A stretch of 26,741 nucleotides of DNA from Candidatus Iainarchaeum sp. (GTDB taxonomy: Archaea > Iainarchaeota > Iainarchaeia > Iainarchaeales > GCA-2688035): positions 1 through 26,741 of the forward strand of contig JAQTNI010000016.1 of assembly GCA_028713935.1 (NCBI GenBank), in the 5' to 3' direction. Shown piece by piece: positions 302-17,595 of this stretch. The notes below the pieces were generated by a model. The model was given only the letters and a program-made list of their open reading frames with translations. It was not told where the DNA came from and made no database searches. How positions within the stretch are numbered: the first letter of the stretch is position 1; each line of letters starts with the position of its first letter. The position numbers and the translations under genes are program-made.

Positions 302-1387
302 ATGAAAGCAGGCCAGGGAGAATGCGAATTTTTTTCTGTTAAAACAGAAAAAAAAAATGCAGAAAAATTGCACCAATGGCTTGTTGCAAGGCAATTGTTG
401 GAGCACAATTTTGAAACAATGCCTTCTGCAGACTTTATTTTTTTTCCAATAAAAAGAAAGCTCTCGGAAAAAGAGGCGAAAGACCTGAAAAAAATTGTGC
501 CTTCTTTTGCAATGAACAGGCTTCTTTTTTCTCCCGCAACAAAACAGCCAAAAAGCCTCAAAGAGGCACTGCGGGAAAAGCTTTCTCAGGAAGAATTTTC
601 AAAGCTGGTTTCAAGCTTTGACACTCTTGGAAACATTGCAATAATAGAAATCCCAGAAGAGCTTGAAAAAAAAGAAAAGCTCATTGCAAATGCTCTTTTG
701 CAGTCAAACAAGTCAATTAAAACAGTCTGCAAAAAGCTTGGCGCGCACCAGGGCAAATTCAGGGTAGAGCCAGTAAAAATAATTGCAGGGGAAAAAAACC
801 TTGTTGCAACTTACAGGGAAAGCGGCTGTGTTTTCAAAATTCCGGTTGGAAAAGCCTTTTTTTCCCCGCGCCTGGGAACAGAGCGCATGCGCATTGCACG
901 CCAAATAAAGCCAGGGGAAGTAATAGGCGCTTTTTTTGCAGGAGTAGGGCCTTTTCCAATTGTTTTTGCAAAAAATTCTCAGATGGAAGCGGCTTTTGCA
1001 ATTGAATTAAATCCTGTTGCAGTCAAATTTTTGGATGAAAACATTCTTCTCAACAAGGCGGAAAACAGGATTTTTCCAGTGCAGGGAGATGTAAAAAAAA
1101 TTGTTCCAAAAAAATTTAAGGATTTTTTCCACCGCATTGTAATGCCCCTGCCAAAAGGAGCTGAAAACTTTTTGGAAAGCGCAATGATTTCCGCGCATCC
1201 AAAAGGCTGCGTAATCCACTTTTACGCTTTTGTTCCGGCAGCAAACCCGTATGAAAAAATCTTTTCCCTTATTGAAAAAACAGCAAAAAAACTTTGCAAA
1301 AAAACAAGGATTTTGCACAAGCAAAAAGTGCGCGCATTCAGCAAGGAAACAATACAAATAGTAATTGACTTTGAAGCCAGGGATTAG
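302..1387 (+). CDS. trm5: tRNA (guanine37-N1)-methyltransferase, Trm5b/Taw22 (Met-10+) family
   Basis: 361 aa. Motifs AFFSPRLGTERMRIA and FFAGVGPFPIVFA match the Trm5 signatures (compare M. jannaschii Trm5b VYFSPRLGGERARI and DMFAGVGPFSI). The N-terminal D1-like region is present and the length is right. Confidence 0.85.
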   Translation: MKAGQGECEFFSVKTEKKNAEKLHQWLVARQLLEHNFETMPSADFIFFPIKRKLSEKEAKDLKKIVPSFAMNRLLFSPATKQPKSLKEALREKLSQEEFSKLVSSFDTLGNIAIIEIPEELEKKEKLIANALLQSNKSIKTVCKKLGAHQGKFRVEPVKIIAGEKNLVATYRESGCVFKIPVGKAFFSPRLGTERMRIARQIKPGEVIGAFFAGVGPFPIVFAKNSQMEAAFAIELNPVAVKFLDENILLNKAENRIFPVQGDVKKIVPKKFKDFFHRIVMPLPKGAENFLESAMISAHPKGCVIHFYAFVPAANPYEKIFSLIEKTAKKLCKKTRILHKQKVRAFSKETIQIVIDFEARD

Positions 1388-1403
1388 GCAATTGCCGAAT
1401 CCC
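1380..1403. repeat. 24-nt near-perfect palindrome spanning the trm5 stop codon
   Basis: GGGATTAGGCAATTGCCGAATCCC: 11 of 12 positions pair (one A/G mismatch). The TAG stop of trm5 is at 1385-1387, inside the left arm. Confidence 0.6.
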
Positions 1404-1414
1404 AGCGTGGAAAT

Positions 1415-1441
1415 AAAAAGGCTTGGCTATTCTGCCTTTTT
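1415..1441 (+). terminator. stem-loop ending in a T-run between trm5 and the PIN gene
   Basis: AAAAAGGC (1415-1422) pairs with GCCTTTTT (1434-1441) across an 11-nt loop. The 3' arm is a T-run ending 1 nt before the PIN ATG at 1443. A function as terminator or translational occluder is inferred. Confidence 0.35.
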
Positions 1442-1442
1442 C

Positions 1443-1877
1443 ATGCCAAAGCGCTTGTATCTTGATTCAAATGTCTTTATTTCTTTTGTAAGGGAAGAAA
1501 TTGATTCTGCTTTTAATTTGAGGTTTTTGGATAGCGAAAATTTTTTTGCGGTCTGTAAAAATAAAAAACACGTTTTGCTTATTTCAAACTGGTTTTTAAG
1601 TGAAGTTGGGAAAATCGCTTGTCTTGATAAAAAAGCAATCTCTGAAGAATTTGAAAGGCACGGGGTAAATGCAATTTTTATTCAAGAAAAAATTGATTTC
1701 AGCAGCGTTTCAAGAATAGCAAAGCAAACAGGCCTGCATTATGCAGATGCCTTGCATGTATCAATCGCTCTTGAGAATAAGGCCGATTTCATTGTTACTT
1801 GGAATATCAGGGACTTCGAAAAAGCCAGCGCTTTGATTAAAGCTGTTTCTCCAAATGAGATTCTAGATACTCTTTGA
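1443..1877 (+). CDS. PIN-domain protein (VapC-like putative ribonuclease toxin)
   Basis: Trimmed to the ATG at 1443 (MPKRLYLDSNVFISF...). The PIN acidic signature is in the expected order: D in LDSNVF, E in LSEVGK, D in YADALHVSIA, D in TWNIRDF. About 144 aa. Confidence 0.7.
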   Translation: MPKRLYLDSNVFISFVREEIDSAFNLRFLDSENFFAVCKNKKHVLLISNWFLSEVGKIACLDKKAISEEFERHGVNAIFIQEKIDFSSVSRIAKQTGLHYADALHVSIALENKADFIVTWNIRDFEKASALIKAVSPNEILDTL

Positions 1878-3573: not shown

Positions 3574-4062
3574 ATGGAAACGCTTTATGAAGATTCTGAA
3601 ACAGGCTGCTGCCCGAAGTTTGATCCTGTTCCCTGGGATGAAAAAGAGGTTTCTTTTGAAGGCAAATTGTTTTTGAAAGACAGGGTAAAAACTTTCCTGC
3701 ATATTCCAATTAACTTTGGCGGAATAATGGTAAAAGACATGGGCTTAATTCAGAAAGCAGATGCGCTTGCAGAAAAGCCATTAATGCTTTATGATGGCGA
3801 TTCCTTGTTTGGCGCCGATATTTTTATTGCGGTAAGCAAAGAAATTCCTGGAAAAGAAACAGTGAAGGTTCAGGGAAAATTCCTTTCAAAGGTTTTTGAG
3901 GGAAATTTTAAGGACTCGGGAAAATGGGTAAAGGAAATGCAGGCATATGTGAAATCGAAAGGAATTCAGCCAGGAAAAATGTATTTTTTTTACACTACTT
4001 GCCCGAAATGCGCTGAATATTACGGAAAAAATTATGTTGTTATTTTTTCTAAGATTGACTAA
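3574..4062 (+). CDS. conserved uncharacterised Cys-motif protein (N-terminal CCPKFDP, C-terminal TCPKCAEYYGKNY)
   Basis: 162-aa ORF, 10 nt after adk and 12 nt before ahcY, with an AAGGGGAT SD-like motif upstream. The motif pattern resembles a family I recall being annotated only as hypothetical or hydrolase in methanogens and Firmicutes; this is unverified. Confidence 0.6.
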   Translation: METLYEDSETGCCPKFDPVPWDEKEVSFEGKLFLKDRVKTFLHIPINFGGIMVKDMGLIQKADALAEKPLMLYDGDSLFGADIFIAVSKEIPGKETVKVQGKFLSKVFEGNFKDSGKWVKEMQAYVKSKGIQPGKMYFFYTTCPKCAEYYGKNYVVIFSKID

Positions 4063-13473: not shown

Positions 13474-13509
13474 GCCTTTTCTCTAAAGAGAAAAGCCTTG
13501 GGAAAAGAG
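13467..13509. repeat. ~43-nt palindrome-bearing element, copy A (inverted relative to copy B)
   Basis: AAAATAAGCCTTTTCTCTAAAGAGAAAAGCCTTGGGAAAAGAG. Its reverse complement matches 17553-17595 at 39 of 43 positions. The core hairpin is CTTTTCTCT-AA-AGAGAAAAG. It starts within the last codons of the KaiC-like gene. Confidence 0.85.
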
Positions 13510-13510
13510 C

Positions 13511-13529
13511 AGTTTTTCTTCGAAAAACT
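13511..13529. repeat. 8-bp hairpin adjacent to element copy A
   Basis: AGTTTTTC-TTC-GAAAAACT is a perfect inverted repeat. The T-run GATTTTTTTATG follows further downstream, before the next ORF. Confidence 0.7.
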
Positions 13530-13544
13530 ATTGTTGATTTTTTT

Positions 13545-13832
13545 ATGCCGGAACCGATTAGAAAAAGGCGTTTTGTGCAGGGCCAGGATAAACCATTTGA
13601 CCCAAATGTGCATCTTGATTTGCGGTTTGTTTCACGCAGAAAAAGGCAATTAGGCGAGCTTGTTGGCGGAGATCTTGTTCTTTCAAAGAGCGAAGTTGCC
13701 AGATTGAACAAGCCGAGGCCGTATGTTATTCCTTCTTTTAACAAGCCTGGCCATGTTGAATTTGTCAATCGCAGGCGCTATCCAATTCTTTCAAAAGGCA
13801 GAAGAAAAGAAGACAGGGAATTTTCTGATTGA
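13545..13832 (+). CDS. hypothetical basic protein
   Basis: Trimmed to the ATG at 13545 (MPEPIRKRRFVQGQDKPFDPNVHLDLRF...). 95 aa, no family recognised. Its stop lies 1 nt from the stop of the convergent abiEi-like gene. Confidence 0.4.
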   Translation: MPEPIRKRRFVQGQDKPFDPNVHLDLRFVSRRKRQLGELVGGDLVLSKSEVARLNKPRPYVIPSFNKPGHVEFVNRRRYPILSKGRRKEDREFSD

Positions 13833-13833
13833 T

Positions 13834-14430
13834 TTATTCTTCCTTGTATTCTGCCCCCAAAAATTTGTTTATTTTTTTGCGTGTTTTTTTTGAGGTTTTT
13901 TTGAGGTATCCTGAAAGCTTTTTTTTATTGGTTTTTTTCAGCATTTTTTTGCGTGTTTGCCTGTCCAGAGGCTCGTTGAAATAAAAAAAATCAATAAGGG
14001 TTTTTTCAGAATCGGAAATGGGAATCCAAAAATCGGAGTATTTTATCATTTCAATTCCAAAAAACATTTTGCGGCTGATTCTTCTGACCAATACATTTGT
14101 TCCGGCAACTTTTCTAAGTCCTGGCCTGATTTTTCTTGGCGTTATTAAAATTGGAATTGTTCCCTGGTTCCAGAAGCCGTGCAGGGATAATGCATCCTGC
14201 AGGCCAAAGTAGGATGGCTGGATTGCAAAAGCGATAACATTAGGGTCTGTGCCAAAAGAGTATGTTCCCTTTGCAATCCTGAAAATTTCCTTTCTTTTTA
14301 ACAGGTGGTTAAGCAGGACATTAACATATTTTGAAGAAATTTTTTTTTTGGAAAAAAAATTTTTAATGTCCCTGACTGAAAAAACAGGCTTTTTTGAAAA
14401 ATGCTGCCTTAGTTCTTTGGTGTATTTCAT
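13834..14430 (-). CDS. AbiEi-like (COG5340-type) wHTH antitoxin/transcriptional regulator
   Basis: N-terminal wHTH-like FSVRDIKNFFSKKKISSKYVNVLLNHLLKRKEIFRIAKGTYSF, then the PSYFGLQDALSLHGFWNQ... block typical of the AbiEi C-terminal domain, then a Lys-rich tail. ATGA overlap with the upstream gene. Confidence 0.7.
   Translation of the reverse strand: MKYTKELRQHFSKKPVFSVRDIKNFFSKKKISSKYVNVLLNHLLKRKEIFRIAKGTYSFGTDPNVIAFAIQPSYFGLQDALSLHGFWNQGTIPILITPRKIRPGLRKVAGTNVLVRRISRKMFFGIEMIKYSDFWIPISDSEKTLIDFFYFNEPLDRQTRKKMLKKTNKKKLSGYLKKTSKKTRKKINKFLGAEYKEE
13835..13853. repeat. 19-nt perfect direct repeat, copy 1 (3' end of the abiEi-like gene)
   Basis: TATTCTTCCTTGTATTCTG is identical to 15128-15146. 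On the minus strand it encodes ..EYKEE plus TA of the stop. Confidence 0.95.
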
Positions 14431-15074
14431 TGTGAAAGCCTCTGAAGAATTTTTTCAAGCATTGCTTTTGAAGGCGGGGCTATCCCCGAAAAAACAATTG
14501 TTTTCAGGTTTTTTTCGTCAACGGGCACTTTGTAATTTTTAAACAATTTTTCGAGTGCTTTCCGCGATTTTTCTATTTTTTCGGTTTTTGAAGATAAGAA
14601 CCATAGGTCATACAAATCCCTGATTAAGCGCCTGTTCAAAAAGGCATCTACTTTTTCAATAATGAAGCCTTCGATTGAGAGAGTGAAGATTTCTGTTGAA
14701 GAGCCGTCGCTTTTTTCAAAGCTTGCCTGGATTTTTTCCGGGCTTTTTCTTTTTGAAACCTCCAGAGAGACTTCTGTTTGGCTGTTTGAGATTTTTGAAA
14801 AAACAGTGTTTTCGCTTTCCTTGAATTTTTTTAGGATAAGGTTTCGTTTTTTTAATTCGGCTTCAAGTTTTGCCCTGAAGTTTTTTCCTGCAAGCGAGTA
14901 GCAGTCAATATCCTCTGAGAACCTGTTTCCCTGCAGGCAGCGCCAGATTGCTGTTCCGCCGTGCAAAACCGCATTAGGGTCTATGGAATAGAGTATGTCG
15001 ACTGTTTCGTCCTGAAGCTCTGCCAAGCGAACCTGTGACTGCCGCTTCAGCATGTTTTTTAACGGGATTCTCAT
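14427..15074 (-). CDS. AbiEii/AbiGii-family nucleotidyltransferase (type IV toxin-like, DUF1814-type)
   Basis: LHGGTAIWRCLQGNRFSEDIDCYS matches the family signature (LKGGTAL..y...RfSeDiDf). At 215 aa it is shorter than the family members I recall. Confidence 0.7.
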   Translation of the reverse strand: MRIPLKNMLKRQSQVRLAELQDETVDILYSIDPNAVLHGGTAIWRCLQGNRFSEDIDCYSLAGKNFRAKLEAELKKRNLILKKFKESENTVFSKISNSQTEVSLEVSKRKSPEKIQASFEKSDGSSTEIFTLSIEGFIIEKVDAFLNRRLIRDLYDLWFLSSKTEKIEKSRKALEKLFKNYKVPVDEKNLKTIVFSGIAPPSKAMLEKILQRLSQ

Positions 15075-15083
15075 AAATTATAT

Positions 15084-15123
15084 AATCAACCAAACCTATA
15101 TTAAATTATATGTTTGGTTAATT
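15084..15123 (-). promoter_or_regulatory. inverted repeat enclosing a TATA-like box between the hef stop and the abiEii start
   Basis: AATCAACCAAAC (15084-15095) and GTTTGGTTAATT (15112-15123) form 12-nt arms with 1 mismatch around the 16-nt spacer CTATATTAAATTATAT. The spacer centre is about 29 nt upstream of the abiEii ATG (15074). Roles as operator/promoter and/or hef terminator hairpin are inferred. Confidence 0.4.
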
Positions 15124-15126
15124 CAA

Positions 15127-17409
15127 CTATTCTTCCTTGTATTCTGACCAGAAGATTTTTTTTATTTGCCTTGCTTTTTTTGGCCCAAGGTTGTCCAGTT
15201 GTTGCAGGTCTTTTCCAAGCGCGTTTGAAATGTTCCTGATTGTTTTGAATTTTCTCAGCAGTGCAACTGCTGTTTCTGGGCCAATGTTTGGCAGTGATTC
15301 AATCACAAACCTTTGCCTTTCAGGTAAGGCCATTCCTTTTCTGCCTATGCGCAGCCTGATGCTTTTGTATTTGTTCAGTTGCTCTCTTTTTGCTGTAATG
15401 AAAAGGAATTCAGCTGTTTCATCGGCATTTTCAGTGAACAAAACAGGCGTCCTGTATGAAACAGCAATTGAAGTGAGCGCCCCAATAATTGCGTTCCTGT
15501 GGATATTGCGCAGTGTGAACAGGTCTTTGTAATTTCCTTCAACAATTATCATCGGGCTTTCGTAATTTGCTGTCATTGCGGGCAGTTGCGTGAAAAGCCT
15601 TCCGTCAATAATGCTTTGCAAAAAGTCTTTCACTGTTTTTCTTTCCACTATGCATCTGTCGCTTAAAACGTAATCTCCCACTTCAAGTTGTTTTTCCCTT
15701 ACAATGCAGCCTTTTTCAGAGAGTTTTTTTGCTATTTCAGAACTCTGTTCCCTTTGGTCAGCGTAAATTAACAATTGTTCTTTTTCACTGGTTTGTTTTT
15801 CTTCTTTGAAGCTGTCAAGAGTGGTTTGCTTGTCGCGCTTGTATTTGTCTTCCTGCATTCCTGCCTGCATTTTTTTCAAGGTGTTGTGAGCTTTTTTTTC
15901 TTTTGCATTGGCATTCCAGTAAAATGCTTCGTCCCTTGTCTTGTTTGCCATGAGCATTACTACTTTGCCGGGTGCAAGCCTTCCTGTTCTTCCTCTTCTC
16001 TGGATTGCCCGAATTTCAGAAGGGACTGGCTCGTAAAAAACAACCAAGTCAACGTTTGGCAAATCAAGGCCTTCTTCTGCAACAGAAGAACCCACGAGTG
16101 TGTTTAGTTCCCCTGTTTTCAGTTTTTGAATTGTTTCTCCTTGTTCTTTTTGTGTCATGCCTTTTTCGTTTTGCTTTGCTGCCTGGCCAATGAATTTTTC
16201 GGCTTTTATGCCCGGCACAGTGTTCAGGAATTCCGCAATGTTTTTTATTGAATCCCTGTAATGGTTGAAAACAAGTGCCTTGCCTTCCGGGTGCTCCAAG
16301 AATTGCCTCAAAAGAATTTCTTTTAATTTTCCTATTTTTGGATGGTTAAAATTTTTTTCTTTAAGGAAAGAGGCTGCTTTCATTGCCTCAAAAAATTGTT
16401 TTTTTGCAACCAATTGCTTCACTGCCCTGCTGGCATCTGCCTTGAAGGCGTCTGCCTTTATTCTTTCAAAATAATCGTGCAAAGCAAAAATTCCCTGTGT
16501 TTCAAGCAGTGTCTGGGCATGGCTGATTTTTAAGAGCTGCGCTGCTGCTGTTGCTCCTGCAAAAAGGCTTGGCTGTGTTTTTCCGTGCCTTGCAATTCTT
16601 TTTCTTATTTCAATCTGCAATTCCAAAATTCTTTTTTTGCTGTAAAAACCCGGATTTGTTGTTTTTGCAAGCCCTGTTTTTTTCAGCATTGCAATTGCGT
16701 CCCTGGCTGTCTGTTCCAGGAGAAGCTTGATTTCCAGCATTTCTTCAGGCAAATCAACTCTTTCCCATTCGATTTTTATTTCATGCGAAAATTGTTTTAT
16801 GTCTTCATCCTGCAAGGTCTTGATTTCAATGTTTTTAATTGAAAGGTTCCTGCATACTTCCTGAATTTTGTCTTCAGTGCTTCCAGGCGATGCTGTTAAT
16901 GCAAGTACAAGGCCTTGTTTTGCCTGCTTTGCATATTTTTCTGAAATGTAAACATAGCTGTATTCCTTTGATGCCCTGTGAGCTTCGTCAAAAATGCACA
17001 ATCCGACTTCTTGCAGGGAAATTTGCTGGTTGCGCAGGTCGTTTTCAATTGTCTGGGGCGTTGCAGAAATAATTGTTGCATTGTTCCATTCTTCAGCTCT
17101 TTTTTCAGGTATTATTGTGCCAGTGAAAAGCAAAATTTTTTCTTTTGGAATATTTAAAAATTTTTGAAGGCTTTTCTGGTGCTGTTCCGCAAGAGGCTTT
17201 GTAGGTGAGAGAAAAAGAATTTTTGATTCGGGGTTTTTTTGCAGGACATTTGCAGCAACAATTGCTGCAATAACTGTTTTTCCAAGTGCTGTTGGCGCAA
17301 CAATAAGGGAATTTCCCGCAGCCAACACCCTGTTTGCAAGTGTTTCCTGAAAAGCGCGCTTTTCAATTGTTTTTTCCCTAATCAATTCGTGTTCCAAAAA
17401 ATCAGGCAT
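15127..17409 (-). CDS. hef: Hef (helicase-associated endonuclease for fork-structured DNA; XPF/ERCC4 family with SF2 helicase)
   Basis: Walker A APTALGKT, DEAH box CIFDEAH, helicase motif VI QRRGRTGR, ERCC4 nuclease block ADQREQSS...GDYVLSD..IVERKTVKDF, and a C-terminal HhH2. Start trimmed to the ATG at 17409; the ORF extends to 17436. Confidence 0.9.
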   Translation of the reverse strand: MPDFLEHELIREKTIEKRAFQETLANRVLAAGNSLIVAPTALGKTVIAAIVAANVLQKNPESKILFLSPTKPLAEQHQKSLQKFLNIPKEKILLFTGTIIPEKRAEEWNNATIISATPQTIENDLRNQQISLQEVGLCIFDEAHRASKEYSYVYISEKYAKQAKQGLVLALTASPGSTEDKIQEVCRNLSIKNIEIKTLQDEDIKQFSHEIKIEWERVDLPEEMLEIKLLLEQTARDAIAMLKKTGLAKTTNPGFYSKKRILELQIEIRKRIARHGKTQPSLFAGATAAAQLLKISHAQTLLETQGIFALHDYFERIKADAFKADASRAVKQLVAKKQFFEAMKAASFLKEKNFNHPKIGKLKEILLRQFLEHPEGKALVFNHYRDSIKNIAEFLNTVPGIKAEKFIGQAAKQNEKGMTQKEQGETIQKLKTGELNTLVGSSVAEEGLDLPNVDLVVFYEPVPSEIRAIQRRGRTGRLAPGKVVMLMANKTRDEAFYWNANAKEKKAHNTLKKMQAGMQEDKYKRDKQTTLDSFKEEKQTSEKEQLLIYADQREQSSEIAKKLSEKGCIVREKQLEVGDYVLSDRCIVERKTVKDFLQSIIDGRLFTQLPAMTANYESPMIIVEGNYKDLFTLRNIHRNAIIGALTSIAVSYRTPVLFTENADETAEFLFITAKREQLNKYKSIRLRIGRKGMALPERQRFVIESLPNIGPETAVALLRKFKTIRNISNALGKDLQQLDNLGPKKARQIKKIFWSEYKEE
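15128..15146. repeat. 19-nt perfect direct repeat, copy 2 (3' end of hef)
   Basis: TATTCTTCCTTGTATTCTG is identical to 13835-13853. On the minus strand it encodes the hef C-terminus ..EYKEE plus TA of the stop. Confidence 0.95.
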
Positions 17410-17534
17410 TGCAACCAATACAATTTTGCAGGGCATTGCTTTTAATCATTTATACACTGGATTTCCACTGTTTTGTTTGCATGCAAATGTAAAAAAACCA
17501 TTTTTTATTGTATTCAAAAGTATATTGGTGAATT

Positions 17535-17551
17535 CTTTTGCTTAGCAAAAG
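17535..17551. repeat. 17-nt perfect palindrome adjacent to element copy B
   Basis: CTTTTGCT-T-AGCAAAAG. It occupies the same position relative to the 43-nt element as hairpin 13511-13529 does at copy A, but with a different sequence. Confidence 0.7.
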
Positions 17552-17552
17552 A

Positions 17553-17595
17553 CTCTTTTTCCAAGGTTTTTCTCTTTAGAGAAAAAGCTTTTTTT
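17553..17595. repeat. ~43-nt palindrome-bearing element, copy B
   Basis: CTCTTTTTCCAAGGTTTTTCTCTTTAGAGAAAAAGCTTTTTTT. The core hairpin is TTTTTCTCT-TT-AGAGAAAAA (17567-17586). It lies in the hef/histone divergent intergenic region. Confidence 0.85.

Follow-up and report, generated by a model that had tools for sequence, protein, structure and literature searches.

AbiE systems, as described by Dy et al. 2014 (PMC3985639), are bicistronic, with the regulator gene placed before the nucleotidyltransferase (NTase) gene. The NTase AbiEii carries the motifs hG[GS]x~15DhD with an Arg (motifs I-II), KLxAaxxR-like (motif III) and +DxxD (motif IV), and the regulator AbiEi binds inverted repeats in the promoter for autoregulation (PMC3985639). 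These systems are mobile and are also found in archaea (PMC3985639). In this study we focus on an abiE pair in a contig of a metagenome-assembled genome (MAG) of Candidatus Iainarchaeum (Diapherotrites, DPANN), where it abuts the 3' end of hef, the gene of a Hef/FANCM-like helicase-nuclease. The whole stretch of DNA analysed, 26.7 kb (26,741 nt), is hereafter called the window, and L and P numbers designate the loci and proteins compared. The cassette made of the two genes and their promoter region is bracketed by two copies of the last codons of hef, and is an insertion scar resolved to the base pair, probably not a new kind of mobile element. The features of the locus are the following (the small open reading frame, ORF, forms its right flank):

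15127-17409, minus strand: hef, Hef/FANCM-like helicase-nuclease, 760 aa (Pfam ERCC4 5.9e-35, DEAD, Helicase_C, HhH)
15128-15167, minus strand: proximal hef-tail copy, 40 nt, coding for the Hef C-terminus; the 19-mer part is 15128-15146
15075-15126, minus strand: left end of the cassette, an inverted repeat (palindrome) with an AT-rich TATA-like stretch, conserved
14427-15074, minus strand: abiEii, which opens the operon and encodes a 215-aa DUF1814 nucleotidyltransferase toxin
13834-14430, minus strand: abiEi, winged helix-turn-helix (wHTH) antitoxin/regulator, 198 aa, with a 4-nt overlap (ATGA) with abiEii
13835-13874, minus strand: distal hef-tail copy, with its last 19 nt (13835-13853) equal to hef and 6 substitutions in the 21 nt upstream of them
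13545-13832, plus strand: small basic orphan ORF of 95 aa that converges with hef and borders the insertion site on the right

Relation of the pair to AbiE systems

The locus shares with the type IV AbiE systems (AbiEi COG5340, AbiEii DUF1814/COG2253) a two-gene operon, overlapping genes and an inverted repeat in the promoter region. The window toxin matches Pfam PF08843 (1.8e-20; 74.3 bits, cutoff 22.5) and the PADLOC AbiEii model (6.3e-22), and LHGG-x14-DID with RFSEDID, KVDAFLNR and RDLYD in its sequence correspond to motifs I-IV; five cassette copies agree in all of the GG, R, D.D and RDLYD residues. Its partner is of the AbiEi type with an N-terminal wHTH, matches the PADLOC AbiEi model over residues 13-181 (5.6e-20), and has homologs named AbiEi-family antitoxins in the source annotations. 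The window pair differs from the type IV systems in that AbiEii is short (215 aa), the AbiEi_4 match of its partner is just below the Pfam cutoff (24.1 bits against 25), and an NCBIfam search with AbiEi, AbiEii and the small ORF gave no match; furthermore, the C-terminal tail of the antitoxin comes from flanking host DNA. Gene order is also reversed: the NTase gene comes first and the regulator second in 5/5 loci examined (the window, L003, L021, L023 and L024), whereas the regulator is first in the canonical operon. Judged by sequence the pair belongs with AbiE, while its gene order departs from the canonical description, and this order, common to all related DPANN copies, marks an architectural variant of AbiE.

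The palindrome at the left end of the cassette has its arms at 15084-15100 and 15107-15123 (AACCAAAC...GTTTGGTT, inverted repeat I19). The arrangement AACCAAAC-N17-GTTTGGTT is present upstream of abiEii in five loci, and a GGATTAACCAAAC-N17-GTTTGGTTG block stands ahead of the gene in L003, L021, L023 and L024. The palindrome at 15075-15126 is thus taken as the putative operator/promoter of the abiE operon, to which AbiEi would bind, and by homology the pair is expected to form a type IV AbiE toxin-antitoxin (TA) or abortive-infection module autoregulated through it.

The shared tail and the alleles of the hef locus

The original prediction described an exact 19-nt direct repeat enclosing the abiE pair and its palindromic promoter-like region and nothing else, and this holds. 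The window contains two copies of the 19-mer (TATTCTTCCTTGTATTCTG on the plus strand), one at 13835-13853 and the other at 15128-15146, and no further copy at up to 3 mismatches; only the 52-nt palindromic region, abiEii and abiEi lie between the two. On the minus strand, the second copy encodes the end of Hef (..IFWSEYKEE, stop TAG) and the first the end of the AbiEi-like protein (..FLGAEYKEE, stop TAA), which confirms that the two proteins have identical DNA-encoded EYKEE endings; the last codons of abiEi, for GAEYKEE and the TAA, lie in the duplicated hef tail. The longest ORF of hef spans 15127-17436, with a probable start at 17409, and the public annotation gives 760 aa (P0121). The last base of its TAG stop is the first of the cassette (15127), and the distal copy terminates on the original hef stop TAA (13834-13836). 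Moreover, the similarity exceeds the 19-mer: 13835-13874 and 15128-15167 are identical at 34/40 positions, counted back from ...AATA.

The repeat was also predicted to be unlikely by chance, and none of 100 dinucleotide-preserving shuffles (0/100) contained two or more matches of the 19-mer. That chance, convergence of tails rich in Lys and Glu, or an assembly artefact created the 19-mer, with no insertion at all, might be argued from the AT-rich low-complexity region and from the K/E-rich ends of both proteins. We give this explanation practically no credence, considering the shuffles, the same architecture in the independent assembly L003, a 40-nt identity in L027, the lack of a native tail of this kind in AbiEi homologs and the existence of cassette-free relatives.

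The origin of the tail can be judged from the homologs of both proteins. Hef homologs, distant ones included, very often end in [SAK]E[YF]KEE, and the window ending ..IFWSEYKEE is of this type. The window protein ends in SEYKEE and that of L003 in GEYKEE, while those of the closest cassette-free relatives end in WKEFKEE (L005), WQEFKEE (L009) and WSQFKEEKD (L006). Among 120 AbiEi homologs, a hef-like tail was found in two, P0001 of the window (AEYKEE) and P0003 (AEFREK), and the remaining ones carry unrelated short tails directly after the conserved KKTRKKIEK. The tail is common in Hef homologs and present in 2/120 AbiEi homologs, and on these grounds E[YF]KEE appears native to Hef, foreign to AbiEi and copied onto the end of the cassette, in agreement with the prediction; the alternative that AbiEi natively carries such a tail, or acquired it by convergence, is removed by the survey of 120 homologs. 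As a separate observation, the Hef homologs P0183, P0188 and P0227 are about 1290 aa long with intein/LAGLIDADG domains (PF14528, PF14890), which indicates that hef hosts other selfish elements in these archaea.

Look-ups of the exact proteins gave nothing for Hef and AbiEii and, for AbiEi, only two contigs of about 1 kb belonging to the same organism. Occupied alleles of the locus were found in relatives. A genome scan with Hef retrieved one relative, L003 (Iainarchaeum DeMMO3_25), whose Hef is 89% identical at the protein level and whose layout, hef-abiEii-abiEi-small ORF, is that of the window. In the window the left junction reads ...GAAGAATA|GTTGAATTAACC, so that the hef frame is whole and the new stop consists of TA plus the cassette G; the junction of L003 is the same (...GAAGAATAG|TTGAATTAACC). 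In L027 (JAGVHO010000031) the order is ScpA, KaiC, small ORF, abiEi. The AbiEi C-terminus there is KKIKKIFWSEYKEE and the distal copy is intact (IFWSEYKEE), its DNA being equal to the 3' end of the window hef over 40 consecutive nt (AAATAAAAAAAATCTTCTGGTCAGAATACAAGGAAGAATA), with similarity stopping at -41. The distal copy is diverged in L007 (AEFREK, about 73% identity), and in L003 12 nt of it are replaced by an insertion of about 100 nt (88 nt net), AbiEi ending in KKLFL; the 3' 19-25 nt are conserved in the window, L003 and L027. Since the distal copy of L027 equals the end of the window hef at 40/40 positions and the two window copies agree at 34/40, the original duplication of the hef 3' end would have measured about 29-40 nt, of which the 19-mer is the part still identical. 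The two copies of the 19-mer had been likened to attL/attR (attachment-site) cores; a defined att core was not borne out, as the 19-mer is the remainder of a longer, decaying duplication.

The additional sequence in L003, at 3745-3845 between abiEi and the distal hef-tail copy, truncates AbiEi and is nearly identical to a dispersed intergenic element of about 60-100 nt, composed of two hairpins (TTTTCTCTaaAGAGAAAA, CTTTTGCTaaGCAAAAG) followed by a TATA-like stretch. In the window this element stands at 13474-13540 (plus strand), in the gap between KaiC and the small ORF, and at about 17500-17595 (minus strand), upstream of hef, where L003 has none. It may be a MITE-like element (miniature inverted-repeat transposable element) or a mobile terminator/promoter module. 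We considered whether the 88 nt net extra of L003 could instead mean that a deletion in the window had fused AbiEi to a tail remnant, and rejected this, the fused state being older and present in L007 and L027. The extra sequence of L003 is a later insertion of the dispersed hairpin element.

An empty site had also been predicted, with hef and a single tail copy followed by a homolog of the ORF at 13545-13832, and it was found in L026 (JAGVHO010000006). This empty allele comprises the end of KaiC, the small ORF and hef, with the junction ...GAAGAATAA|ATCAATCAG, one tail copy and no cassette. Its hef ends in ...TTCTGGGGCGAATACAAAGAAGAATAA and is directly followed by ATCAATCAGAAAATTCCC..., the right flank being the same as in the window and the stop codon of the small ORF standing 1 nt from that of hef. 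Over 2160 nt, the hef of L026 and that of the occupied L003 are 97.7% identical, with no difference in the last 70 nt. Together with the junctions, this empty site supports the predicted insertion at the extreme end of hef with regeneration of the Hef C-terminus. L026 and L027 have KaiC ends that are 97-100% identical, and small ORFs that differ by substitutions and indels. An assembler jump or collapse across the repeat was rejected as the source of L026, the flank of which differs from those of L027 and L003 by substitutions and indels.

Insertion, spread and competing explanations

Homologous abiEii-abiEi pairs, with AbiEi about 70% identical, lie at unrelated places in other DPANN genomes: within an ABC-transporter operon (L021), between AdoHcyase and PfkB (L023), and between a peptidase and a PPDK-like gene (L024). 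They share a left boundary, a T[TC]G[GA]ATTAACCAAAC-N17-GTTTGGTTG palindrome located about 52 nt ahead of the start codon (ATG) of abiEii; in the window this boundary is the base that directly follows the stop codon of hef. On the right, the homology of these three loci stops just past the abiEi KKIEK codons and context-specific AbiEi tails follow; in the DPANN copies the tail after KKIEK differs with each genomic context, reaching up to the neighbouring gene. Because the boundaries are the same in unrelated neighbourhoods, the 1.25-kb cassette (operator/promoter, abiEii, abiEi) is the inserted unit itself. No hef-like tail and no hef neighbour was found at L021, L023 and L024, and no flanking direct repeat, the longest common substrings being 9-11 nt against null maxima of 11-13. 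The comparison of flanking repeats and of att reuse covers these three loci; the left flank of L007 lies outside it.

These boundaries bear on the suggestion that the cassette is the last remnant of a plasmid or provirus integrated at a hef-tail att and deleted down to an addictive TA pair. The direct repeats do resemble att sites at the 3' end of a gene, and toxin-antitoxin pairs are often kept from decayed mobile elements, which counts for this idea. However, both junctions fall within a few nucleotides of the boundaries seen in three unrelated contexts, no extra sequence separates the repeats from the cassette (the 52-nt operator follows on the left, and abiEi runs into the repeat on the right), and two independent deletions ending exactly at the cassette boundaries are improbable. 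We therefore hold a remnant of a larger element, which the original prediction had allowed for, to be highly improbable.

The same data can be confronted with a transposon-like unit moved in trans by a widely staggering transposase or casposase-like enzyme, the repeat being its target-site duplication. An insertion flanked by a direct duplication has the right geometry, and in several contexts the ends of the cassette are defined and conserved. A DDE_Tnp_1 transposase (L023, 6409-7308) lies about 1.8 kb from the cassette and is the only mobility gene seen near any copy. Against such a unit, an inverted-repeat search revealed no terminal inverted repeats pairing the cassette ends, L021, L023 and L024 have no target duplication, the window has no transposase, and on the right the cassette ends within the reading frame of the antitoxin. 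In addition, a duplication of 29-40 nt is above the usual length for known prokaryotic transposases, and altogether we find this explanation very doubtful.

Comparison of the window with L003 revealed uneven divergence. At hef the synonymous divergence (dS) reaches 0.73, against 0.35 at each of abiEii and abiEi. The first ~1600 nt of hef are about 83% identical at the nucleotide level; this identity increases to 90-92% in the final ~600 nt of the gene, remains close to 90% along the cassette and falls to about 82% right after the distal copy. Third-position identity is 61-68% for hef codons 1-570 and 78-82% for codons 635-760. Constraint on the 3' end of hef was considered as the reason and rejected, since third-position identity over the same blocks against L005, L009 and L006 is flat (43-59%). 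L026 carries the hef part of this block as well (third-position identity 75-78%). These values suggest that the cassette and the final ~400-600 nt of hef share a more recent common ancestry as one block, about half as diverged as the remainder of hef. This points to spread by homologous recombination between lineages, in which the cassette appears to be carried along with neighbouring host DNA. For one Diapherotrites population, homologous recombination has been reported to be a main source of variation (PMC5905446). The presence of the hef part of the block in L026 makes this empty allele more likely a secondary precise loss, through recombination between the tail copies, than an untouched ancestral site.

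Taken together, we favour, as a reasonably probable account, one illegitimate insertion of abiE at the hef stop with duplication of the tail, later spread by recombination and possibly lost precisely. The sequences show that the compact, promiscuous cassette of about 1.25 kb was inserted at the hef stop codon (...AATA|) and that the hef tail, some 29-40 nt, was duplicated. The Hef stop was rebuilt as TAG, while AbiEi lost its own short tail, reads in frame into the duplicate and stops on the old TAA. In our scenario this took place once, in an ancestral Iainarchaeal chromosome. The event would be illegitimate, either repair of a staggered break or template switching guided by microhomology, with no dedicated site-specific recombinase. 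On the right, the A-rich end of abiEi (KKI[E/K]K) contains the junction, and both partners have an A-run there (native abiEi ...AAAAT[TC]GAAAA[AG]; hef ...CAAATAAAAAAAATC), which fits such an event. Homologous recombination would then have carried the cassette, together with the final ~400-600 nt of hef, between related lineages, and L026 would be accounted for by a recombination of one tail copy with the other that removed the cassette precisely.

Several points weigh against this account. The mechanism of the original insertion is reconstructed from descendants, the event itself being beyond observation. A target duplication of 29-40 nt is long for staggered-cut repair, and the microhomology is a low-complexity A-run of ambiguous extent, the crossover being blurred because L007 keeps the native IEK while L027 reads IKK and the window INK. 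The distal copy of the window has 0 changes in its 3' 19 nt against 6 in the adjoining 21 nt, an unevenness that simple neutral decay would explain poorly. The hef tails of L003 and L026 have GGC and AAA where all distal copies and the window hef have TCA and AAG, so that the exchange relating L003 and L026 must fall in the last 8 nt by the cassette; L026 keeps the proximal-type GGC and AAA, and a deletion between the repeats would need an exchange in these 8 nt, an outcome that a site-specific recombinase would also give. Finally, L026 and L027 both come from one MAG bin (GCA_020056555.1) and are known as assembled contigs.

This last stretch of 8 nt brings in the reading of the cassette as a non-autonomous site-specific element, with the hef tail as attL/attR and a tyrosine or serine recombinase acting in trans. 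It draws on the direct repeats that bracket the cassette and regenerate the 3' end of the target gene, on the precise empty site in a strain with a 97.7% identical hef, on the limitation of the L003/L026 exchange point to the last 8 nt by the left cassette end, and on the fact that the window, L003 and L027 all conserve the 3' 19-25 nt of their distal copies. Duplication of att sites by tyrosine integrases typically occurs at tRNA genes. Neither an integrase, a transposase nor a tRNA gene was found in the cassette or the 26.7-kb window, which confirms the predicted absence of integrase and transposase inside the cassette and extends it to the whole window; with no tRNA gene there, the insertion site is not a tRNA-type att. 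No recombinase is thus present in the cassette or window, and the hef-like tail is confined to this lineage among the 120 AbiEi homologs. The distal 'att' is decaying or disrupted (34/40 in the window, an insertion of ~100 nt in L003, about 73% in L007), and the single lower-divergence block made of cassette and hef 3' end fits homologous recombination over re-integration. Viral contigs yielded no copy of the cassette, so no vehicle was identified, and one match of the 19-mer that is unrelated and due to chance. Recurrent site-specific integration is not supported, since the related cassettes of L021, L023 and L024 have neither hef-like sequence, hef neighbour nor flanking repeats, and we regard a site-specific element as unlikely.

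A more specific form of this idea would make abiE an integrase-less mini-element, with the C-terminal coding sequence of hef as its attachment site; a host or helper recombinase would integrate and precisely excise it, exchanging strands in the last ~8 nt (GAAGAATA) by its left end, and the hef-tail mimic fused to the antitoxin gene would serve as attP. If true, this would be a site-specific, trans-mobilised TA cassette in DPANN archaea; we consider it distinctly unlikely.

Neighbourhood, significance and comparison with other elements

The other window ORFs tested are all housekeeping genes, encoding Trm5/TYW2, adenylate kinase, AdoHcyase, TFB, RNase HII, ScpA and ScpB, and further a KaiC-like ATPase, a histone, CMP kinase, RuBisCO, MGMT, CysRS and others. 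After the Trm5/TYW2 gene, and slightly overlapping it, a PIN-domain protein that is possibly a VapC-like toxin is encoded at 1365-1877 (plus strand). The small ORF has three other homologs in 5.8 billion proteins, two of them in GCA_020056555.1, and no family match. It lies at 278-559 in L026 and at 2719-3045 in L027. The 3' half of this ORF is hypervariable in the four alleles, even between strains with flanks that are 97-100% identical, and contains a 39-nt internal duplication in L027.

Other TA modules occur around this locus in relatives. In L005 (8288-9254), and also in L008 and L010, a wHTH-MNT (Polbeta) and HEPN-like pair occupies the hef-KaiC gap in place of abiE; it lies on the opposite strand and begins 8 nt after the stop of hef, the Hef there being 75% identical. 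A MazE/PemK pair lies just past ScpA in L005 and L027. The hef-KaiC gap looks like a landing pad for toxin-antitoxin modules.

TA and abortive-infection cassettes are known to move, but the junctions through which a bare two-gene cassette entered are rarely resolved; here, in a DPANN archaeon with a streamlined genome, the hef locus shows them to the single base. The last codons of a repair gene that looks essential were duplicated, which preserved the gene on insertion, and the antitoxin would tolerate a C-terminal tail swapped for host-derived sequence. Presence or absence of the cassette varies among strains with about 98% identical flanks. The locus also calls for caution, as an exact repeat around a cassette need not be an att core and can be, as here, the surviving part of a longer decaying duplication. 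No described TA cassette that duplicates the 3' end of a host gene was found in the literature searched, which does not amount to proof of absence.

Three classes of insertions can be compared with the hef locus. Integrative elements that target 3' ends likewise have direct repeats, regenerate the 3' end of the target and leave a precise empty site in a close relative. In the window, however, the insert is 1.25 kb long without an integrase, the distal copy lies inside the antitoxin ORF, and the repeat is neither conserved as a unit nor present at the other cassette locations. Integron TA cassettes are also small promoter-proximal TA units found in many contexts, whereas the abiE cassette has its own promoter/operator and stands outside any array, with no IntI or integrase in the window; an inverted-repeat search, run without a formal attC model, gave no attC-like palindrome at the 3' end of abiEi. 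Illegitimate and microhomology-mediated insertions resemble the locus in being one-off inserts with a flanking target duplication and an A-run at one junction, for which neither an enzyme nor end motifs are required. The locus differs from them in that the length of the duplication and the microhomology are deduced from descendants, and in that the outcome is unusually neat, both reading frames having been kept.

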